Under the pieces are notes generated by a model. That model saw nothing but the letters and a program-made list of their open reading frames with translations. It did no database searches and was not told where the DNA came from. A stretch of DNA of 32,000 nt from Nanoarchaeum equitans Kin4-M (GTDB taxonomy: Archaea > Nanobdellota > Nanobdellia > Nanobdellales > Nanoarchaeaceae). Position 1 is the stretch's first letter. Every line of letters begins with the position of its first letter. Shown one piece after another: positions 3,478 through 25,850 of this stretch. The position numbers and the translations under genes are program-made. Where the stretch lies: contig AE017199.1 in assembly GCA_000008085.1 (NCBI GenBank), forward strand, positions 420,001 through 452,000, read 5' to 3'.

Positions 3478-4315
3478 TTTGTTTTGCTATTTCTTTTAGC
3501 TCGTGCAACTTAGATTCATATTCGGCAAACTTTTTATAAAATACTTCTATATACTTTTTAAGTTTTGTTATTTTTTCATTGGCGTTGCTTAGGGAATATA
3601 ATATAGCATCTATTTCGCTTAAGGATTGGACAACAAATATGCCTTTAGTTTTTAGTATGTTTGGCTCTGCTTTAACCTCTTTGGCATGGAATATCTTTAT
3701 ATTTGGGCTTATTCCTAATAATTCTAATTTTCCTAAAAAGGTTGCAATTTTTTCATTATCCAATATATCGCTATATAATACTACATATACTGGTACACCC
3801 ATCACTATTTTCTTACCTATAGTTAAGCCATCTTTCTTTATTATTGTATATCCATGCTTTGTTAATATACCTTCGATATCGTTTTTAGGTTCTACTTTTG
3901 GTTCTTCTTTCTTTTGTTCCAAATCTATGTTAAAATTAATCTTTTTCCTTACCCCAATAGGAATTATTTCATTTAACCTATCTAATTCAAATTCCTTATC
4001 TAATGCCCTTAGTTTAATGGGTATAACCAAAAAATAGTCTCCTTCAGGCATCTTATTTAAGTATATGTCAGAAATTGTATTCTCTATTATAGTTACATGC
4101 CCTTCATATTTGTTGCTCTTTTCATCAAATACATATACTGCTATATCCGCTACCAATGGTTCGTCATTAAATAACTCTTTTAGCAAATCTCCAAGTTTTT
4201 TACCTTTTACTTTTACATTATCTAGTATTGCTTGCAATAGTTGGTCTTTGTTTGATGGGGTTATATAAAAGGAATCCTCAACTTGGCCTTTCTCTTTGGC
4301 CCTAATTAAGAACAT
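3464..4315 (-). CDS. Hypothetical protein (283 aa)
   Basis: Long ORF with an ATG start. A TTATTAAAT box on the minus strand ends 19 nt before the ATG. I recognise no family motif. Confidence 0.6.
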   Translation of the reverse strand: MFLIRAKEKGQVEDSFYITPSNKDQLLQAILDNVKVKGKKLGDLLKELFNDEPLVADIAVYVFDEKSNKYEGHVTIIENTISDIYLNKMPEGDYFLVIPIKLRALDKEFELDRLNEIIPIGVRKKINFNIDLEQKKEEPKVEPKNDIEGILTKHGYTIIKKDGLTIGKKIVMGVPVYVVLYSDILDNEKIATFLGKLELLGISPNIKIFHAKEVKAEPNILKTKGIFVVQSLSEIDAILYSLSNANEKITKLKKYIEVFYKKFAEYESKLHELKEIAKQIVSL

Positions 4316-6993: not shown

Positions 6994-7401
6994 ATGGCTA
7001 AGGAATTCAGATACAAGGGATATACTTTACAAGAATTAGAGCAAATGTCTTTAGAGGAATTAGCTAAAATAATGCCTGCAAGGCAAAGGAGAACCTTATT
7101 GAGAAGGCTAAAGTTTGGATGGAGTGACCAACAAAAGAAGCTATTCAAGAAAATATTGTTAGCAAAAGAAGGTAAATACAAAAAACCAATAAAAACCCAC
7201 GCTAGAAACACAATAATATTGCCATTTATGGTTGGTGTTACAGTACATGTCTACAATGGAAAAGAATATGTCCCAGTTCAAATAAAACCAGAGATGATAG
7301 GCCATTATTTAGGGGAATTCAGCTTTACTACTAAGAGACCCAAGCACAGCGCCCCAGGTATAGGTGCAACAAGGTCTAGCGCGCACGTATCTAAGAAGTA
7401 A
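6994..7401 (+). CDS. rps19: 30S ribosomal protein S19 (uS19)
   Basis: [67 protein letters not shown] is the canonical uS19 core. The ORF opens at TTG 6979; ATG 6994 (MAKEFRYKG) is the more likely start. Confidence 0.95.
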
Positions 7402-7404
7402 AAT

Positions 7405-7413
7405 TTTTTAAAT
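7405..7413 (+). promoter_or_regulatory. TATA/box-A element of tRNA-Arg (TTTTTAAAT), ending 20 nt before G1
   Basis: TTTTTAAAT, then 19 nt, then G7433, which is mature tRNA position 1. The same box and spacing occur at the tRNA-Val, tRNA-Glu 5' half and sRNA genes. Confidence 0.7.
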
Positions 7414-7432
7414 AATATTTTTATCCAACTCT

Positions 7433-7506
7433 GGGCCCGTAGCTCAGCTTGGTAGAGCGGCGGCCTCCTAAGCCGTAGGTCGCGGGTTCGAATCCCGCCG
7501 GGCCCG
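7433..7506 (+). tRNA. tRNA-Arg (anticodon CCU), no encoded CCA
   Basis: Manual cloverleaf: GGGCCCG UA GCUC AGCUUGGUA GAGC G GCGGC CUCCUAA GCCGU AGGUC GCGGG UUCGAAU CCCGC CGGGCCC G. The next bases are GAA, so no CCA is encoded. Confidence 0.95.
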
Positions 7507-7511
7507 GAATA

Positions 7512-12248: not shown

Positions 12249-12324
12249 ATTTTTCTTTGCGGCCGTGCTCCCTGGGTCCCCGAGTGGGATAAGGGCCCAG
12301 GGAGGCGGGGTTTTATTCCCCCGC

Positions 12325-13826
<1,502 letters not shown>

Positions 13827-15676: not shown

Positions 15677-16618
15677 ATGTTCCGTATAAGTAGGACAAGC
15701 TTTAAGCCATTAGACAAACAATGGGACGTTATAATAATTGGAGGGGGGCCAGCAGGGGTTGTGGCTGGTTTATATAGCGCTAGGTATGGACTTAAAACAT
15801 TACTAATATCGCCAGATAAAGGAGGAATGTTAACAGAAGCATCTTTTATAGAGAATTACCCCGGGTTCATATCGATTTCTGGTCCAGATTTAGCGGAAAG
15901 GCTATTCGAGCAATATGAAAAAAATGGGGGACATTATTTAAAAGACAAAGTAAGTGATATTAAAAAGGATAAAAACTTTATTGTAATTACCGAAGGTGGT
16001 TACGAATTGGAAGCGAAAGCAATTATATTAGCAACAGGCTCCAGGAGAAGGAAATTAAATGTGAAAGGGGAAAACCTACCAGGGGTATCCTATTGCGCTG
16101 AATGTGATGCTCCATTATTTAAAGGGAAAACTGTTGCCGTCGTTGGGGGTGGTAACACAGCTTTCCATGACGCTTTAGTTTTATCTAATTATGCAAATAA
16201 AGTTTATCTAATTCATAGAAGAGACCAATTTAGGGCAGAAAGTTACTTAGTTGAAAATGCAAAGAAAAAAGATAACATAGAGTTTATATTAAATAGTGTA
16301 GTAAAAGAAATAAGAGGACAAAACAAAGTTGAATCCATTATAGTGCAAGATAAAGAAGGCAATACAAAAGAGCTAAAAGTAGATGGGGTTTTTGTTGCTA
16401 TTGGTATGGAAACAAACATAGAATTAGCTAAAAAATTAGGAGTACAACTAGACGAGAGAGGAAAAATAATAGTCGATAGATGTCAAAGAACTAATATACA
16501 ATATGTATATGCTGCAGGTAACATTACTAACAATTGTTGCGATTTAGATCAAATAGTTACATCTATGGCACAAGGCGCAATTGCTGCTAAATCCGCTTAT
16601 GAAGATTTGCTAAAATAG
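15677..16618 (+). CDS. trxB: Thioredoxin reductase (FAD/NAD(P)-dependent pyridine nucleotide-disulfide oxidoreductase)
   Basis: It has DVIIIGGGPAGVVAGLYSARYG (FAD site), the redox-active CAECD (CxxC), VAVVGGGNTAFHDAL (NAD(P)H site) and YAAGNIT. The TATAAAG box ends at 15657, 20 nt before the ATG. Confidence 0.93.
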   Translation: MFRISRTSFKPLDKQWDVIIIGGGPAGVVAGLYSARYGLKTLLISPDKGGMLTEASFIENYPGFISISGPDLAERLFEQYEKNGGHYLKDKVSDIKKDKNFIVITEGGYELEAKAIILATGSRRRKLNVKGENLPGVSYCAECDAPLFKGKTVAVVGGGNTAFHDALVLSNYANKVYLIHRRDQFRAESYLVENAKKKDNIEFILNSVVKEIRGQNKVESIIVQDKEGNTKELKVDGVFVAIGMETNIELAKKLGVQLDERGKIIVDRCQRTNIQYVYAAGNITNNCCDLDQIVTSMAQGAIAAKSAYEDLLK

Positions 16619-16673
16619 CCGGGGCAGTGGGATCGAAAACCCCGTATGCTAGACCTGGCTACACCACGGGGGC
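16617..16673 (-). tRNA. Split tRNA gene: tRNA-Glu(UUC) 5' half (positions 1-37, 16673->16634) plus a GC-rich 3' pairing tail (16633->16617)
   Basis: The minus strand reads GCCCCCG UG GUGU AGCCAGGUCUA GCAU A CGGGG UUUUCG, then AUCCCACUGCCCCGGCU AUUUU. There is no 3' anticodon-stem strand, variable loop or T arm. The TTTTTAAAT box lies 20 nt upstream of G1. Confidence 0.85.
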
Positions 16674-16692
16674 TAGAGTAAAATTAGAGAGC

Positions 16693-16701
16693 ATTTAAAA
16701 A
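16693..16701 (-). promoter_or_regulatory. TATA/box-A element (TTTTTAAAT) of the tRNA-Glu 5' half
   Basis: On the minus strand: TTTTTAAAT, then 19 nt (GCTCTCTAATTTTACTCTA), then G16673, which is position 1. Confidence 0.7.
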
Positions 16702-16703
16702 TT

Positions 16704-17393
16704 TTATTGGTTAACAATAGTTACATTATTTCCGTCGTAGTATATATAAGCGCATGAACTGCCATAACATAGTTTTATTGCTGGATATGTATTAGTTCCA
16801 TCGGTGTATTCTGTTACATATATATAACCATTCCCATCAGAAGTGGCTTTGACTGTTATTTCTTTATTGAAAGTTGTTTTTTCATTGAATACAGCATTAC
16901 CATTTACAGTAACACTATTTAGAGTTGCACTATTAGATACAGACAAATCTTTTGTTGTTACTGTATTATTAACCGCCAAATTATTAGCTGTAACATCCCC
17001 ATTTATTTGAGCATTGCCGTTTACATTTAAACTATTGGCAGTTAGAGAGTTATAAACATACATTGGGACATAGAATGCTGCATTAGTACTGGATAGGCTC
17101 CAATAATCGCTAGAGCTAGAAAGCTTTATATAATTATATGTTATATATAAATTATAAGTCCCATCGTACAATTTTATACCTTGGGTAGCACTTATTAGTA
17201 TTTGTTTTGTTCCGTCAATCCATTTTGCTAAAGCAGTTTTGAAATTAGCTTCATTATTTACAAACCAAAGTTCTGTCCATTTTGTATAAGGACAATAAAC
17301 GGACGGTTGTGAAGTATATGGCCCATTGCATGTTGCTGCCAACGCTGGCACTATTGGTAAGGCAAACAAAATTAATCCTACTTTTGTTCTCAT
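16704..17393 (-). CDS. Secreted or surface protein with Asn/Thr/Val-rich beta-strand repeats (229 aa)
   Basis: Signal-peptide-like N-terminus (MRTKVGLILFALPIVPALAATC). The central repeats are LTANSLNVNGNAQINGDVTANNLAVNNTVTTKDLSVSNSATLNSVTVNGNAVFN. Cys residues lie near both ends. Confidence 0.7.
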   Translation of the reverse strand: MRTKVGLILFALPIVPALAATCNGPYTSQPSVYCPYTKWTELWFVNNEANFKTALAKWIDGTKQILISATQGIKLYDGTYNLYITYNYIKLSSSSDYWSLSSTNAAFYVPMYVYNSLTANSLNVNGNAQINGDVTANNLAVNNTVTTKDLSVSNSATLNSVTVNGNAVFNEKTTFNKEITVKATSDGNGYIYVTEYTDGTNTYPAIKLCYGSSCAYIYYDGNNVTIVNQ

Positions 17394-17442: not shown

Positions 17443-18387
17443 TTAAATCCAAATCCTCCAATAAGGTCTGGGTTTTGGTTCATAATATATTCCTTGGCTA
17501 TACCAATAATACCCTAAATAAGCAATCATTGCTCCGTTGTCTGTTAAATATTGGCAAGGCAATCTATAGAATTTAAAATTATTTTCTTTAGCCATTTGTT
17601 CTGCCATATCGTTTAGTCTATTGTTGCATGCAACCCCTCCAGTTAGTATTAATTCTTTTTTATCTAACATATGCATGGCTCTTTCTGCTATTTCTAATAT
17701 TAAAGCAAATACCCACTCTTGTAAAGAGTATGCTATGTCCTCTTTGCTATATTGATCTTTAATTCTTTTTATGTATGTATAAATTCCTCCCAATTGTAAG
17801 TTCAAACCTTTTATTGTATAAGGCAATTCGATTAAATTTTTACCTTTTTTTGCCAATTCCTCTATTTTTGGTCCTCCTGGGAATTCTAATCCTAGATCTC
17901 TAGCGACTTTGTCTATTAAATTGCCTACCCCCATATCTAAAGTTTCTCCAACCAAAAACCAACTGTTATTTACTATTGCTAAAAATTGGGTATTCGCTCC
18001 TGATACATATACAAACAATGGGTCTTTCGCTTTAGCTAAATATCTAGCAAATTCATTATGTGCTACTATATGGTTTACCCCAATTACTGGTTTATTTAAT
18101 TTTTTTCCTAAATATACTGCTATGTAATTGCCTAATTTTAATGTAGGTAATAAACCAGGCCCAGAGGAAACAGCTATTAAGTCTATGTCTTTTAAACTAA
18201 TGTTGGCTTTTTCTAATGCTTTTAATAATACTTTGTCAAACTCTTTTAAATGTAATTCTGCTGCTTCTCTAGGATGTATACCATAGCCCTTGTAAGTTAC
18301 CTTTTCATTGGCTAAAACACCTTTTTCACTATCAAATATCCCAACCCCAAATGTGTGGGCAGTACATTCTATTCCCAATACTTTCAT
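17443..18387 (-). CDS. kae1: Kae1 (tRNA N6-adenosine threonylcarbamoyltransferase, KEOPS catalytic subunit)
   Basis: MKVLGIECTAHTFGVGIF...YGIHPREAAELH...DLIAVSSGPGLLPTLKLG...KPVIGVNHIVAHNE...TGGVACNNRL is the Kae1/Gcp family pattern. It overlaps the upstream radical SAM gene by 4 nt. Confidence 0.92.
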   Translation of the reverse strand: MKVLGIECTAHTFGVGIFDSEKGVLANEKVTYKGYGIHPREAAELHLKEFDKVLLKALEKANISLKDIDLIAVSSGPGLLPTLKLGNYIAVYLGKKLNKPVIGVNHIVAHNEFARYLAKAKDPLFVYVSGANTQFLAIVNNSWFLVGETLDMGVGNLIDKVARDLGLEFPGGPKIEELAKKGKNLIELPYTIKGLNLQLGGIYTYIKRIKDQYSKEDIAYSLQEWVFALILEIAERAMHMLDKKELILTGGVACNNRLNDMAEQMAKENNFKFYRLPCQYLTDNGAMIAYLGYYWYSQGIYYEPKPRPYWRIWI

Positions 18388-19438: not shown

Positions 19439-20923
19439 TTATTGATCTTCGTCTTTATTATCTTCAACCTCTAAATAATATAAATCATGGTGGGGTGCAT
19501 CCGCTAACATTGCTATATCGTTGGGCCTATTCTTATAATGGGCCATAATATATATTCCAACAAATTGCCTTAACTTCTCTTCTTGGTTTAGAATGAAATC
19601 TCTTTTGTCCGGTTTAACTAATTTTGGATTTGTGGGGTTTTCTATTTTGGCCGGCTCAGCATCTAATAACAATACATCATACATAAACCTTTCTACAGGG
19701 TCGTCTATGGCATATCTTATAGGCTCTTTCATTTTATGCTCTATAACCATTAGATTGGGGTTTTCCTTTAGCGCTTTCAAAAATCTAACATTAAATGTTC
19801 TACCCGCCCCTTCATAACCATGTATGGTTGTAGAGAATACCAATCTATCGTATTTGTTCATTATTTTATACAAATATGTTACATATACTCCTGCAGCTTC
19901 ATCGACAGCAACTAAATCATATTTTCTTTTAACCAAATCTTGCGGTTGCTTATACTCTATAATTACTTTCCCAGCTTTTATTTTGTTCTTTTTTTCTTCA
20001 TATTTTAGCTCTAACTTTTCCAAAGCTTTTTTCAAAAATTCCCATAGCGATTCTATGTTACCTCTATTCGGTGCAGTTATCCCAATATAGAACGGTTTTT
20101 TATAAAAAACATATGTAATTCCCGCTATCCCCAAACCAACTGCTACGGATTTTCCCCTACCTCTATCGGCAGTTAAAACATAAGCTATCTCTTTATTAAC
20201 AAGGTTTTCGAATTTTTTTAATGCCTCTGCTTGGTCTTTTGTTACGCACATCCCATATAGCTTTTTGGGAAAAACCTCTCCATAAACTCTATGGAATTCT
20301 GCTTTTGGAGGAGCAACATCTTTTTCGTTCTCTATATATTTTATCGCTTTTTCTTTGTCTGTATCATATATATAAACTTCGTGTTCAAACAATTTTTTAA
20401 CCCACCTTTCTTCGAAATAATGCTTTACATCCTTTATAGTATAGGGAGGTGTAACCAAATGTTCATGGAATGTTGTTATTATTTTATCCCATTTATCAAT
20501 AGAGGGAGCTAAAGCGATTATTAATCCAGTGCCTCTAACTAAACCGAATAGCCTTCCCAAATCATCTGGGGTTAGAGAGTTGGTTAAATCCATAATAAGA
20601 ATATCATAAGTTTTACCTAATACCTTTTGAGTTTCTTTAAAATATATTCTATCGAGTTTTGCTCCCTTTAAATTAGTATTTTCTATAAAATATTGATATC
20701 TTCTAATGTTTTGTTCTCTGTCTTCGCTTACATATAATACTTGGGGTTTTACTCTAAGCTCTTTTTGATATCTAATAGCATTTTCTATTATTCCTGGCAA
20801 TGGTTTTTCAGGGTTTTTTCCCGATAATATGATAAATGATCTCCAATAATGTTCTATAGCCCTAGCTTGAGCATTATCGAATACTATTTTTAGATCGCCT
20901 TTTAAGTTAGAGTCGATGCGCAT
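19439..20923 (-). CDS. tmcA: TmcA/NAT10-type tRNA cytidine acetyltransferase, DUF1726 plus helicase/ATPase portion only; the GNAT domain is missing
   Basis: It has LTADRGRGKSVAVG (Walker A of TmcA/Kre33), LVAVDEAA, STTIHGYEGAGRTF and HYKNRPNDIAMLADAPHH. The ORF stops about 15 aa after this last motif, where the acetyltransferase domain normally begins. Confidence 0.85.
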   Translation of the reverse strand: MRIDSNLKGDLKIVFDNAQARAIEHYWRSFIILSGKNPEKPLPGIIENAIRYQKELRVKPQVLYVSEDREQNIRRYQYFIENTNLKGAKLDRIYFKETQKVLGKTYDILIMDLTNSLTPDDLGRLFGLVRGTGLIIALAPSIDKWDKIITTFHEHLVTPPYTIKDVKHYFEERWVKKLFEHEVYIYDTDKEKAIKYIENEKDVAPPKAEFHRVYGEVFPKKLYGMCVTKDQAEALKKFENLVNKEIAYVLTADRGRGKSVAVGLGIAGITYVFYKKPFYIGITAPNRGNIESLWEFLKKALEKLELKYEEKKNKIKAGKVIIEYKQPQDLVKRKYDLVAVDEAAGVYVTYLYKIMNKYDRLVFSTTIHGYEGAGRTFNVRFLKALKENPNLMVIEHKMKEPIRYAIDDPVERFMYDVLLLDAEPAKIENPTNPKLVKPDKRDFILNQEEKLRQFVGIYIMAHYKNRPNDIAMLADAPHHDLYYLEVEDNKDEDQ

Positions 20924-23676: not shown

Positions 23677-24747
23677 ATGAGAAGTATAACTCCGATTATT
23701 GCAATAGTAATACTTTTATTAGTCACGATAAGCGCCGTTACTCCTTTATATTTATGGGTACAGAAAGGTGTGCAAAAATATTCTCAAAAAGCTACAAAAA
23801 CTGCAGATACAACATTTAAGTCTATAACTAATCTAGAAATAGCTGATATAAAGATATATAAAAAATATGATGGAGCATTGGCTTTATGGTATTTAGATGA
23901 GGGTTTTGGTAATATTGTTGATGATTATAGTAACAATAATTACAAGCTTAAATTTGAGGGATCTCCGAGATGGGTTAAAGGAGTACTTAGCAACGCTTTA
24001 GAATTTAATGGAAATAGCTCATTAAAAGGAAATTACCAATTGCTTGTTGGTAAAACAAAATGGAGTATAACTTTGATAACAAAACCATATAGTCTTGCCA
24101 ATTACACATATGCAGAGGGCACAACAGATGGTGACAAAATCGTTTTAGAAATTGCTAACAATAAATTTAGAATTGCTATATCTAATAACTCTGTAGGTTG
24201 GCAAAGATTGTCCTCTAGTTTACCTCTTAGTAAAAACGAATGGTATTTTGTTGCTGTAACTTATGATGGAGATAATCTAAAAATATGTGTTAATAATGTT
24301 TGTAATAGTACTAGTGGTATAAAATCAGCAACCACTGGAGGGGGTACAGTAAAAATAGCAAATGGCGTTTATGCTAACTACCCCTATAAAGGAGTTATCG
24401 ACGAAATATATCTATATAATGAACCATTGGACAATAAAACTATTGAAAATCTATACTATAGGCTAACCGTTAGAGTAGTAAACCCTAACGATAGACCAAT
24501 AAAAATAGAGGGTTATTACCAAATAGAAGATCCAGAAACTGGTAATATAATATGTGAGATCCCATTAAAGTATAAAGAAACTTTTATAACAGATTCGGGA
24601 TCAGATTTAATAAAACCATCAAAAGAAGAAACTATAAGAATGGTATTGTTTTACAAAGATAAGCATTGCTCTCTTAATAAATGGAAAACATATAATTTTT
24701 GTTTAACAAACGGTATCAATAGGGTTTGTAAATTGTTCCATCCATAA
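23677..24747 (+). CDS. Surface protein: archaeal type IV pilin-like (class III) signal peptide plus a LamG/concanavalin-A-like lectin domain (356 aa)
   Basis: The N-terminus (MRSITPIIAIVILLLVTISAV) is archaeal prepilin-like. LamG_3 hallmarks are NALEFNGNSSL, NEWYFVAVTYDGDNLKICVNN and YKGVIDEIYLYNEPLDNKTIENLY. Confidence 0.75.
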   Translation: MRSITPIIAIVILLLVTISAVTPLYLWVQKGVQKYSQKATKTADTTFKSITNLEIADIKIYKKYDGALALWYLDEGFGNIVDDYSNNNYKLKFEGSPRWVKGVLSNALEFNGNSSLKGNYQLLVGKTKWSITLITKPYSLANYTYAEGTTDGDKIVLEIANNKFRIAISNNSVGWQRLSSSLPLSKNEWYFVAVTYDGDNLKICVNNVCNSTSGIKSATTGGGTVKIANGVYANYPYKGVIDEIYLYNEPLDNKTIENLYYRLTVRVVNPNDRPIKIEGYYQIEDPETGNIICEIPLKYKETFITDSGSDLIKPSKEETIRMVLFYKDKHCSLNKWKTYNFCLTNGINRVCKLFHP

Positions 24748-24819
24748 TGGGCCCGCGGGGATTCGAACCCCGGACCTCCGCCTCGTGAGGGCGGCGTCAT
24801 ACCCCTAGACTACGGGCCC
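24748..24819 (-). tRNA. tRNA-Val (anticodon CAC), no encoded CCA
   Basis: The minus strand reads GGGCCCG UA GUCU AGGGGUA UGAC G CCGCC CUCACGA GGCGG AGGUC CGGGG UUCGAAU CCCCG CGGGCCC A. Its 3' end directly abuts the stop codon of the convergent LamG gene. Confidence 0.95.
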
Positions 24820-24838
24820 AGTAAATAGGATTAATAAA

Positions 24839-24846
24839 ATTTAAAA
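24839..24846. promoter_or_regulatory. Single palindromic TATA box (ATTTAAAA / TTTTAAAT) shared by tRNA-Val (left) and thpR (right)
   Basis: On the minus strand, TTTTAAAT ends at 24839, 20 nt from tRNA-Val G1 (24819). On the plus strand, TTTAAAA ends at 24846, 20 nt from the thpR ATG (24866). Confidence 0.6.
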
Positions 24847-24865
24847 GCTTAGATATTTTAATTAG

Positions 24866-25384: not shown

Positions 25385-25850
25385 TTTTCTTCACTATAAG
25401 GAAAGAGAATATTGTAGAAATAATAGCAATTATTATGGCTAAAATAAAGCCATGCTTTGTTTCCCATGGAGGGATAGCATTGACGAAGTTCATCCCATAG
25501 AGGCTTGTAACAAAAGTGGCGGGGGCAAAAGCTATAGAGATAAATGCCAACTTATTTAGATTTTCATTTATTCTTTTATTGATTACACTATCGTTTATAT
25601 CTAATATATAAAATAAATCTGACTTAAGTGTTAAAAGATAGCTTTTTAGTTTTTCCAACTCTTTTGTGTTTTCTCCAAACTCTATTAGTTTATTTATTTT
25701 TCTTAATAGAACATTGATCTCTTTTTTGGTTTCTAAAATTTCGTCTATATTTAATATACCATTTAATGCTTTGTCCTCTAACAAATCGATTTTTCTTTCT
25801 ATTTCAGCAATTTTTTCTCTAATTTCTATAAGTTCTCTTTTTCCAACCAT
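25365..25850 (-). CDS. CorA-like metal ion channel fragment: stalk helix plus GMN pore and two TM helices only (161 aa)
   Basis: The C-terminus (LAFISIAFAPATFVTSLYGMNFVNAIPPWETKHGFILAIIIAIISTIFSFLIV) contains the YGMN signature between two TM helices. The N-terminal about 100 aa is a coiled coil. The alpha/beta cytoplasmic domain is absent. Confidence 0.7.
   Translation of the reverse strand: MVGKRELIEIREKIAEIERKIDLLEDKALNGILNIDEILETKKEINVLLRKINKLIEFGENTKELEKLKSYLLTLKSDLFYILDINDSVINKRINENLNKLAFISIAFAPATFVTSLYGMNFVNAIPPWETKHGFILAIIIAIISTIFSFLIVKKINLESI

Follow-up and report, generated by a model that had tools for sequence, protein, structure and literature searches.

The 5′ half gene of split tRNA-Glu(UUC) in Nanoarchaeum equitans Kin4-M: sequence features at genome position 436673(-) and their agreement with the published record

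We analysed a 32-kb stretch of genomic DNA (hereafter the window; positions refer to it unless called genomic), and we are all but certain that a short minus-strand locus within it, genome positions 436673..436634(-), encodes the 5′ half of tRNA-Glu(UUC) in Nanoarchaeum equitans Kin4-M. The feature is already known and not new: it is a textbook split tRNA gene that has been experimentally verified. Of the tRNA, a single contiguous 5′ part is encoded, and it stops at the recognised splice position 37/38.

Results and Discussion

Genomic context of the half gene

Three open reading frames around the site match N. equitans Kin4-M genes exactly: 15677-16618(+) is NEQ491, 16704-17393(-) is NEQ492 and 17443-18387(-) is NEQ493 (Kae1/TsaD). 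Pfam identifies NEQ491 as a pyridine nucleotide-disulphide oxidoreductase, in agreement with the first-pass annotation, and its size is that of a thioredoxin reductase. The tRNA-Glu(UUC) half is flanked by NEQ492, whose stop codon lies 31 nt upstream, and by NEQ491, whose coding end lies directly downstream, and the promoter, half and tail together occupy the entire 85-bp gap between the two stop codons. Since 16673 in the window plus 420000 equals the published coordinate 436673, the window corresponds to genome positions 420001-452000 and the gene is the same as the published one. A JGI contig (L001) also spans the site and is identical over 16610-16705. The features of the locus are as follows.

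16694..16699, minus strand: box A (TATA-like) TTTAAA, from sequence and its spacing of -26..-21 from G+1
16634..16673, minus strand: tRNA-Glu(UUC) 5′ half, 40 nt, positions 1-37, from sequence, homology and the published start 436673(-)
16618..16633, minus strand: 3′ extension, 16 nt, AU followed by CCCACUGCCCCGGC, from sequence; the published sizes of ~56/40 nt imply 16 nt
16612..16615, minus strand: T-run, TTTT within TATTTTAG, a candidate archaeal oligo-T terminator, from sequence and position

The 40-nt half and its break point

The minus strand from 16673 to 16634 reads GCCCCCGTGGTGTAGCCAGGTCTAGCATACGGGGTTTTCG, 40 nt that correspond to tRNA positions 1-37. The acceptor arm is represented by its 5′ strand GCCCCCG, followed by U8 and G9; the D arm has the stem GUGU/GCAU and an 11-nt D loop and is followed by A26; and the anticodon arm has the stem strand CGGGG and the loop UU-UUC-G, which gives the anticodon UUC. 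The first-pass annotation, made from the letters of the DNA, had read the same 40 nt as positions 1-37 with anticodon UUC, and our parse of the sequence agrees. Half and tail together (56 nt) contain 66% G+C, as against 34% in the window.

The remainder of the tRNA is absent from the window. ARAGORN calls only two tRNA genes there, tRNA-Arg(CCT) at 7432-7507 and tRNA-Val(CAC) at 24747-24820, with no call at the site of the half and no intact tRNA-Glu gene anywhere in the 32 kb. Rfam finds tRNA-Arg, tRNA-Val and 16S rRNA over the window and nothing at the half; no tRNA was found at this site at the gathering threshold, at E<=10 on 16300-17000, or with the stretch cut at the break. Such silence of ARAGORN and Rfam is expected because the gene is only half a tRNA. 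The sole Rfam match at the half, rdlD (13.7 bits, E = 2-9), is at chance level and was discarded. Exact matches to GTTCRAATC in the window fall only within the two complete tRNA genes, at 7486 and 24760, and no T arm combined with the acceptor strand CGGGGGCA exists in the 32 kb besides these two intact tRNAs; the single CGGGGGCA match, at 25520, has no tRNA context. The earlier claims that the gene breaks after position 37 and that no T arm follows downstream are borne out. A permuted tRNA arrangement is excluded by the NEQ492 stop codon 31 nt upstream. The sequence analysed here itself shows the identity of the organism, the half and where it breaks off, the tail, the spacing of the promoter, and that the window lacks a 3′ half.

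Promoter and transcription start

The sequence TTTAAA at 16699..16694 occupies -26..-21 relative to G+1, and the identical spacing between TTTAAA and +1 is found in the tRNA-Arg (G+1 = 7433) and tRNA-Val (G+1 = 24819) genes of the same window. The half begins with a purine (G) at the transcription start and has no 5′ leader. The published promoter of tRNA and tRNA-half genes in N. equitans has its box A, TTTAAA, 26 nt before the start (PMC3491384). The spacing found here matches it and is in keeping with transcripts that carry no leader, the organism having no RNase P. All 11 tRNA-half precursors were detected by RNA-seq (Randau 2012, PMC3491384).

3′ extension, T-run and overlap with NEQ491

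The bases that follow the half, 16633..16610, are AT, CCCACTGCCCCGGC and TATTTTAG, and they are unable to complete the anticodon stem. The AU of the extension is predicted to lie in the splice-site bulge. It is followed by the GC-rich stretch CCCACUGCCCCGGC (14 nt, 16631..16618), which is the predicted trans-pairing sequence for the leader of the 3′ half, based on the literature description of GC-rich stretches of the halves as complementary only to the matching half (PMC3491384); the exact register between tail and leader is one that we infer, while the complementarity itself rests on that description. Scanning the window for the reverse complement of the tail, with up to 2 mismatches allowed, gave no further match. 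If the leader is assumed to be fully complementary to the tail, the 14-bp duplex has a predicted energy of -33.4 kcal/mol at 37 C and -11.7 at 90 C, and the isolated half precursor is predicted to be nearly unfolded at 90 C (-1.7 kcal/mol). These modelled energies would fit a role of the GC stretch in driving pairing at growth temperature.

NEQ491 ends on the plus strand with ...D L L K TAG, the TAG being at 16616-16618. The final C of the GC-rich tail overlaps this stop codon and the T-run at 16615..16612 lies inside the NEQ491 coding end. The first-pass annotation had placed the tail and the terminator over the stop codon of trxB on the opposite strand; this is the NEQ491 stop codon, and the overlap also appears in the literature. 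The terminator of N. equitans tRNA genes is a T-stretch, and by RNA-seq the 3′ end of the Glu half is ill-defined and extends into the oppositely oriented adjacent gene (PMC3491384).

Agreement with the published record

The split tRNA-Glu(UUC) 5′ half of N. equitans was reportedly described by Randau et al. in 2005 (Nature 433:537). Table 1 of Chan, Cozen & Lowe 2011 lists two Glu 5′ halves, UUC at 436673(-) and CUC at 331758(-), each of ~56/40 nt (precursor/mature), and a 3′ half common to both at 487064(-) with sizes of ~56/35 nt and a leader of ~21 nt, the Glu halves being ligated at 37/38 (PMC3218864). The difference between precursor and mature 5′ half is 16 nt, which agrees with AU plus the 14-nt GC stretch. 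Locus, coordinate, 40-nt part, 16-nt extension and 37/38 junction are the same in the published 5′ half and in ours, with no difference. The split-tRNA architecture of N. equitans, which the first-pass annotation had proposed for this DNA, is thus in accord with the published position 436673(-), the ~56/40 nt sizes and the 37/38 junction; its statement that two 5′ halves share one 3′ half also proved correct, with Glu(UUC) and Glu(CUC) both paired with 487064(-) (PMC3218864).

The mature tRNA was amplified by RT-PCR with the forward primer GCCCCCGTGGTGTAGCCaGGTctAGCATAC (Mitchell et al. 2009, PMC2761253), which is identical to the minus strand of the window at 16673..16644, the first 30 nt of the half; the reverse primer gives the tRNA-Glu 3′ end as GGTTCAAATCCCGGCGGGGGCA (PMC2761253). 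The NEQ205-NEQ261 endonuclease cleaves pre-tRNA-Glu at a relaxed bulge-helix-bulge (BHB) motif whose two bulges measure 3 nt and 4 nt, and sequencing after ligation showed the correct 78-nt tRNA (PMC2761253). No redundant tRNA with the same anticodon is reported from the N. equitans genome (PMC2237900). Podar et al. 2013 count Glu (2) among the tRNAs that N. equitans joins in trans and list none for Nst1 (PMC3655853). The transcripts, the endonuclease cleavage, the mature joined tRNA and the position of the partner all come from such published experiments. In the literature searched, the sequences of the tail, the leader and the 3′ half were not found in print, and the supplements of PMC3491384 do not list the halves.

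Comparison with relatives and with other split tRNAs

The contiguous tRNA-Glu(UUC) genes of relatives, which we obtained from loci matching the published 3′ end and called with ARAGORN, matched the 32-kb window by blastn only at 16673..16634, and the match comprised exactly query bases 1-40. Identity to the half ranges from 33 to 37 of 40 (Nst1, Nanoclepta, Nanopusillaceae MAG), the best relative being the Nanopusillaceae MAG (37/40, E = 3e-11), with Nanoclepta at 36/40. Over the 35 nt past the break, identity falls to the chance level of 11/35: the homology ends exactly there, and the half is more than a chance resemblance. The D-stem pair 12:23 is G:C in the window half and C:G in the relatives, a two-sided change that keeps the pairing.

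Nst1, Nanopusillus and Nanoclepta have a contiguous tRNA-Glu that ARAGORN calls, with the same 3′ end GGTTCAAATCCCGGCGGGGGCA as N. equitans tRNA-Glu. Unlike N. equitans, Nst1 has no split tRNAs and retains RNase P (PMC3655853). One nanoarchaeal metagenome-assembled genome (L010) carries a contiguous but interrupted tRNA-Glu(CUC), missed by ARAGORN, with an insertion of ~150 nt straight after the anticodon loop, where N. equitans splits. In every other nanoarchaeal locus fetched, tRNA-Glu is contiguous, which agrees with the published view of a late origin of the split in the N. equitans lineage.

Within N. equitans itself, the tRNA-Glu(CUC) 5′ half has the same architecture and uses the same 3′ half at 487064(-), but its first anticodon base is C instead of U and its locus, 331758(-), lies outside the window. 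Among other archaea, the Asp halves of the split tRNA-Asp(GUC) of Aeropyrum pernix and Thermosphaera aggregans also join at 37/38 (PMC3218864). This tRNA-Asp(GUC), the tRNA-Lys(CUU) of Staphylothermus and the tri-split tRNAs of Caldivirga maquilingensis have in common separate transcripts, complementary flanks, a BHB motif and a heterotetrameric endonuclease, and the halves in Desulfurococcales lie close together, whereas those of N. equitans tRNA-Glu are ~50 kb apart (PMC3218864).

The partner 3′ half and the CUC twin

The published 3′ half at 487064(-) lies outside the window (genome 420001-452000), as the first-pass annotation had expected for the partner. AlaRS-alpha (NEQ547), presumably, sits near 487 kb of the N. 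equitans genome; no AlaRS was present in any locus fetched, and no mention of NEQ548-553 was found in the literature searched. Our scans for the 3′ half had no positive control and covered collections from which the N. equitans genome is probably absent, so they are not counted against the split-tRNA reading. A search of genome contigs, probably without the N. equitans genome, for GCCGGGGCAGTGGG followed at tRNA spacing by CCCCG and CGGGGGC (pattern GCCGGGGCAGTGGGN{1,10}CCCCGN{20,24}CGGGGGC) gave 0 matches. The published 3′ end GGTTCAAATCCCGGCGGGGGCA occurs in genome contigs at 119 loci at least, with none from N. equitans among the matches listed. For metagenome contigs, GGGGCAGTGN{12,40}GGTTCAAATCCCGGCGGGGGCA had 0 matches (again with no positive control), and GCCGGGGCAGTGGGN{5,10}CCCCG had at least 120 chance matches, none with tRNA context among those listed. 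The 40-mer half had 0 matches in viral contigs.

NEQ491 is carried by four independent Logan assemblies, every one of which stops at window position 16667, where the last 31-mer to include the first anticodon base (16637) ends. An assembly with k = 31 would break off there if positions 1-33 recurred in the genome with a different base 34. With k = 31 assumed, the Logan breaks are an indirect sign of the Glu(CUC) twin with identical positions 1-33. The window half combined with an inferred 3′ half, composed of positions 38-51 from relatives and 52-73 from the published reverse primer and so not the real partner, is called by ARAGORN as a canonical 75-nt tRNA-Glu(ttc) cloverleaf.

Alternative explanations

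A truncated tRNA-Glu pseudogene or recombination remnant, functionless and left by genome erosion in a reduced symbiont, would also consist of half a tRNA only and be ignored by tRNA finders, and the N. equitans genome is indeed strongly eroded and rearranged (PMC3655853). Against this stand a break that falls precisely on the canonical splice position, 37/38, a box A of the tRNA type with the exact -26 spacing, the 14-nt GC-rich tail within a genome rich in AT, and a D stem whose pairing is kept by a two-sided change relative to relatives. Moreover, mature tRNA-Glu was amplified with the identical primer (PMC2761253), the half transcript was seen in RNA-seq (PMC3491384), and no redundant tRNA with the same anticodon is reported from the genome (PMC2237900). 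The published mature tRNA and half transcripts have already refuted a functionless remnant in practice, and we give it virtually no credence. Just as little credence goes to the reading that the half is the 5′ exon of a cis-spliced tRNA gene with a very long intron, its 3′ exon lying downstream on the same strand within one precursor. The ~150-nt insertion in the L010 tRNA-Glu(CUC) does show that long introns at the canonical position occur in this gene family. Against it, a T-run follows the tail, what comes next on the minus strand is the entire NEQ491 coding region in antisense, the 32-kb window has no T arm with CGGGGGCA outside the two intact tRNAs, and the 3′ half known from the literature lies ~50 kb off and is transcribed on its own (PMC3218864, PMC3491384).

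A different proposal leaves the tRNA function in place and adds a second role, in which transcripts running on into the 3′ end of NEQ491 would restrain this thioredoxin-reductase-like gene, either as antisense RNA or through convergent transcription. There is physical overlap of the tail and T-run with the stop and last codons of NEQ491, which is a pyridine nucleotide-disulphide oxidoreductase, and the RNA-seq 3′ end extends into this adjacent gene (PMC3491384). If true, expression of the tRNA-Glu half would be coupled to that of NEQ491. We nevertheless regard such a role as very improbable: physical overlap is what speaks for it, with regulation itself unsupported; overlap is expected in so compact a genome, where the intergenic space is 85 bp; the defined part of the transcript overlaps the coding sequence by a few nucleotides only; and the author of the RNA-seq study reads the overlap as imprecise termination (PMC3491384).

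Proposed assembly of tRNA-Glu(UUC)

Taking the locus as the gene for the 5′ half of a tRNA joined in trans, transcription would start at G+1 from the box A 26 nt upstream, without a 5′ leader because the organism lacks RNase P, and would yield a transcript of ~56 nt made of tRNA positions 1-37 and the 16-nt extension. The 14-nt GC-rich part would then anneal to the complementary leader of a separate 3′-half transcript (positions 38-73), a leader that is expected to contain GCCGGGGCAGUGGG. This 3′ half, encoded ~50 kb away at 487064(-), would also serve the Glu(CUC) 5′ half from 331758(-). The annealed halves would probably fold into the tRNA body with a relaxed bulge-helix-bulge motif at 37/38, from which the heteromeric splicing endonuclease NEQ205/NEQ261 would remove extension and leader. 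An RNA ligase would then join the halves, and CCA would be added.

Significance

Raw sequence can be enough to recognise a half tRNA gene that escapes both ARAGORN and Rfam. The locus is among the founding examples of split tRNAs: it was described in 2005, its precursor was seen by RNA-seq in 2012, and pre-tRNA-Glu is a substrate of the endonuclease. Split tRNA genes show that the intron-splicing machinery can build a functional tRNA in trans out of two transcripts, and such tRNAs feed the debate on whether tRNAs originated from two half-sized minigenes or whether the split genes arose by late fragmentation during genome reduction.

Logan contig ends and a sub-threshold Rfam match at the tRNA-Glu(UUC) 5' half

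The minus-strand tRNA-Glu(UUC) 5' half (16673 to 16634) adjoins NEQ491, and four independent Logan assemblies with NEQ491 (L002, L003, L004 and L006) yield contigs whose ends coincide at window position 16667, within the half. This is the end of the final 31-mer that includes the first anticodon base (16637). If k is 31 for these assemblies, as was assumed in our analysis, the shared break is a hallmark of tRNA positions 1-33 occurring twice in the genome, the other copy being the Glu(CUC) 5' half. An Rfam search also returned a sub-threshold match to rdlD at 16634-16689 on the minus strand, scoring 13.7 bits where the gathering threshold is 50. Its sole source is potential base pairing, within the half, between the acceptor strand GCCCCCG and the anticodon-stem strand CGGGG. 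We rejected an antitoxin RNA at this location, the weak match being a chance resemblance.

Other features of the window

12266-12325, plus strand: GC-rich inverted repeat CTCCCTGGG...CCCAGGGAG, then GGCGGGG...CCCCCGC, just upstream of the 16S rRNA gene
12326-13825: 16S rRNA gene
19439-20923, minus strand: NEQ495, TmcA_N and NAT10/TmcA helicase domains
7401-7433, plus strand: tRNA-Arg(CCT) promoter region
24819-24851, minus strand: tRNA-Val(CAC) promoter region

The 16S rRNA gene is solitary, with no 23S or 5S gene within the window, and the inverted repeat preceding it may be an rRNA processing structure. NEQ495 ends about 38 residues inside a GNAT acetyltransferase domain. NEQ096/NEQ495 is a known split gene for a P-loop ATPase-acetyltransferase, and NEQ495 is one of its parts. 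In both tRNA promoter regions TTTAAA occupies exactly -26 to -21, counted from the G that begins the mature tRNA, a distance that leaves no space for a 5' leader. This layout is that of the leaderless tRNA transcription already known for N. equitans, an organism without RNase P (PMC3491384).

tRNA-Glu genes of related nanoarchaea

Among the matches listed, contiguous tRNA-Glu(UUC) and tRNA-Glu(CUC) genes are present in Nanoclepta, Nanobsidianus Nst1, Nanopusillus and Nanopusillaceae genomes. Contiguous tRNA-Glu genes lie on these fetched contig loci:

L081, 130-204
L017, 3914-3988
L055, 3896-3970
L035, 27-103
further loci: L008, L067, L096, L110 and L115

The relatives' genes share 33-37 of the first 40 nt with the half in the window, and their final 22 nt are identical to those of N. 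equitans tRNA-Glu. Within the matches listed for the fetched nanoarchaeal loci, a split tRNA-Glu gene is confined to N. equitans. One further locus, from a Nanoarchaeota MAG (L010), carries an interrupted gene:

L010 (contig JAHJSW010000018.1), about 3700-3903, plus strand: tRNA-Glu(CUC), interrupted

ARAGORN made no call for this gene, whose 5' exon (GCCCCTGTAGTCTAGAGGCCAAGGACGCCACCCTCTCA) and 3' exon (...CGGTGGTGACCCGGGTTCAAATCCCGGCGGGGGCA) are separated by an AT-rich insertion of about 150 nt immediately 3' of the anticodon loop. The insertion point is the same as the point at which tRNA-Glu is split in N. equitans.
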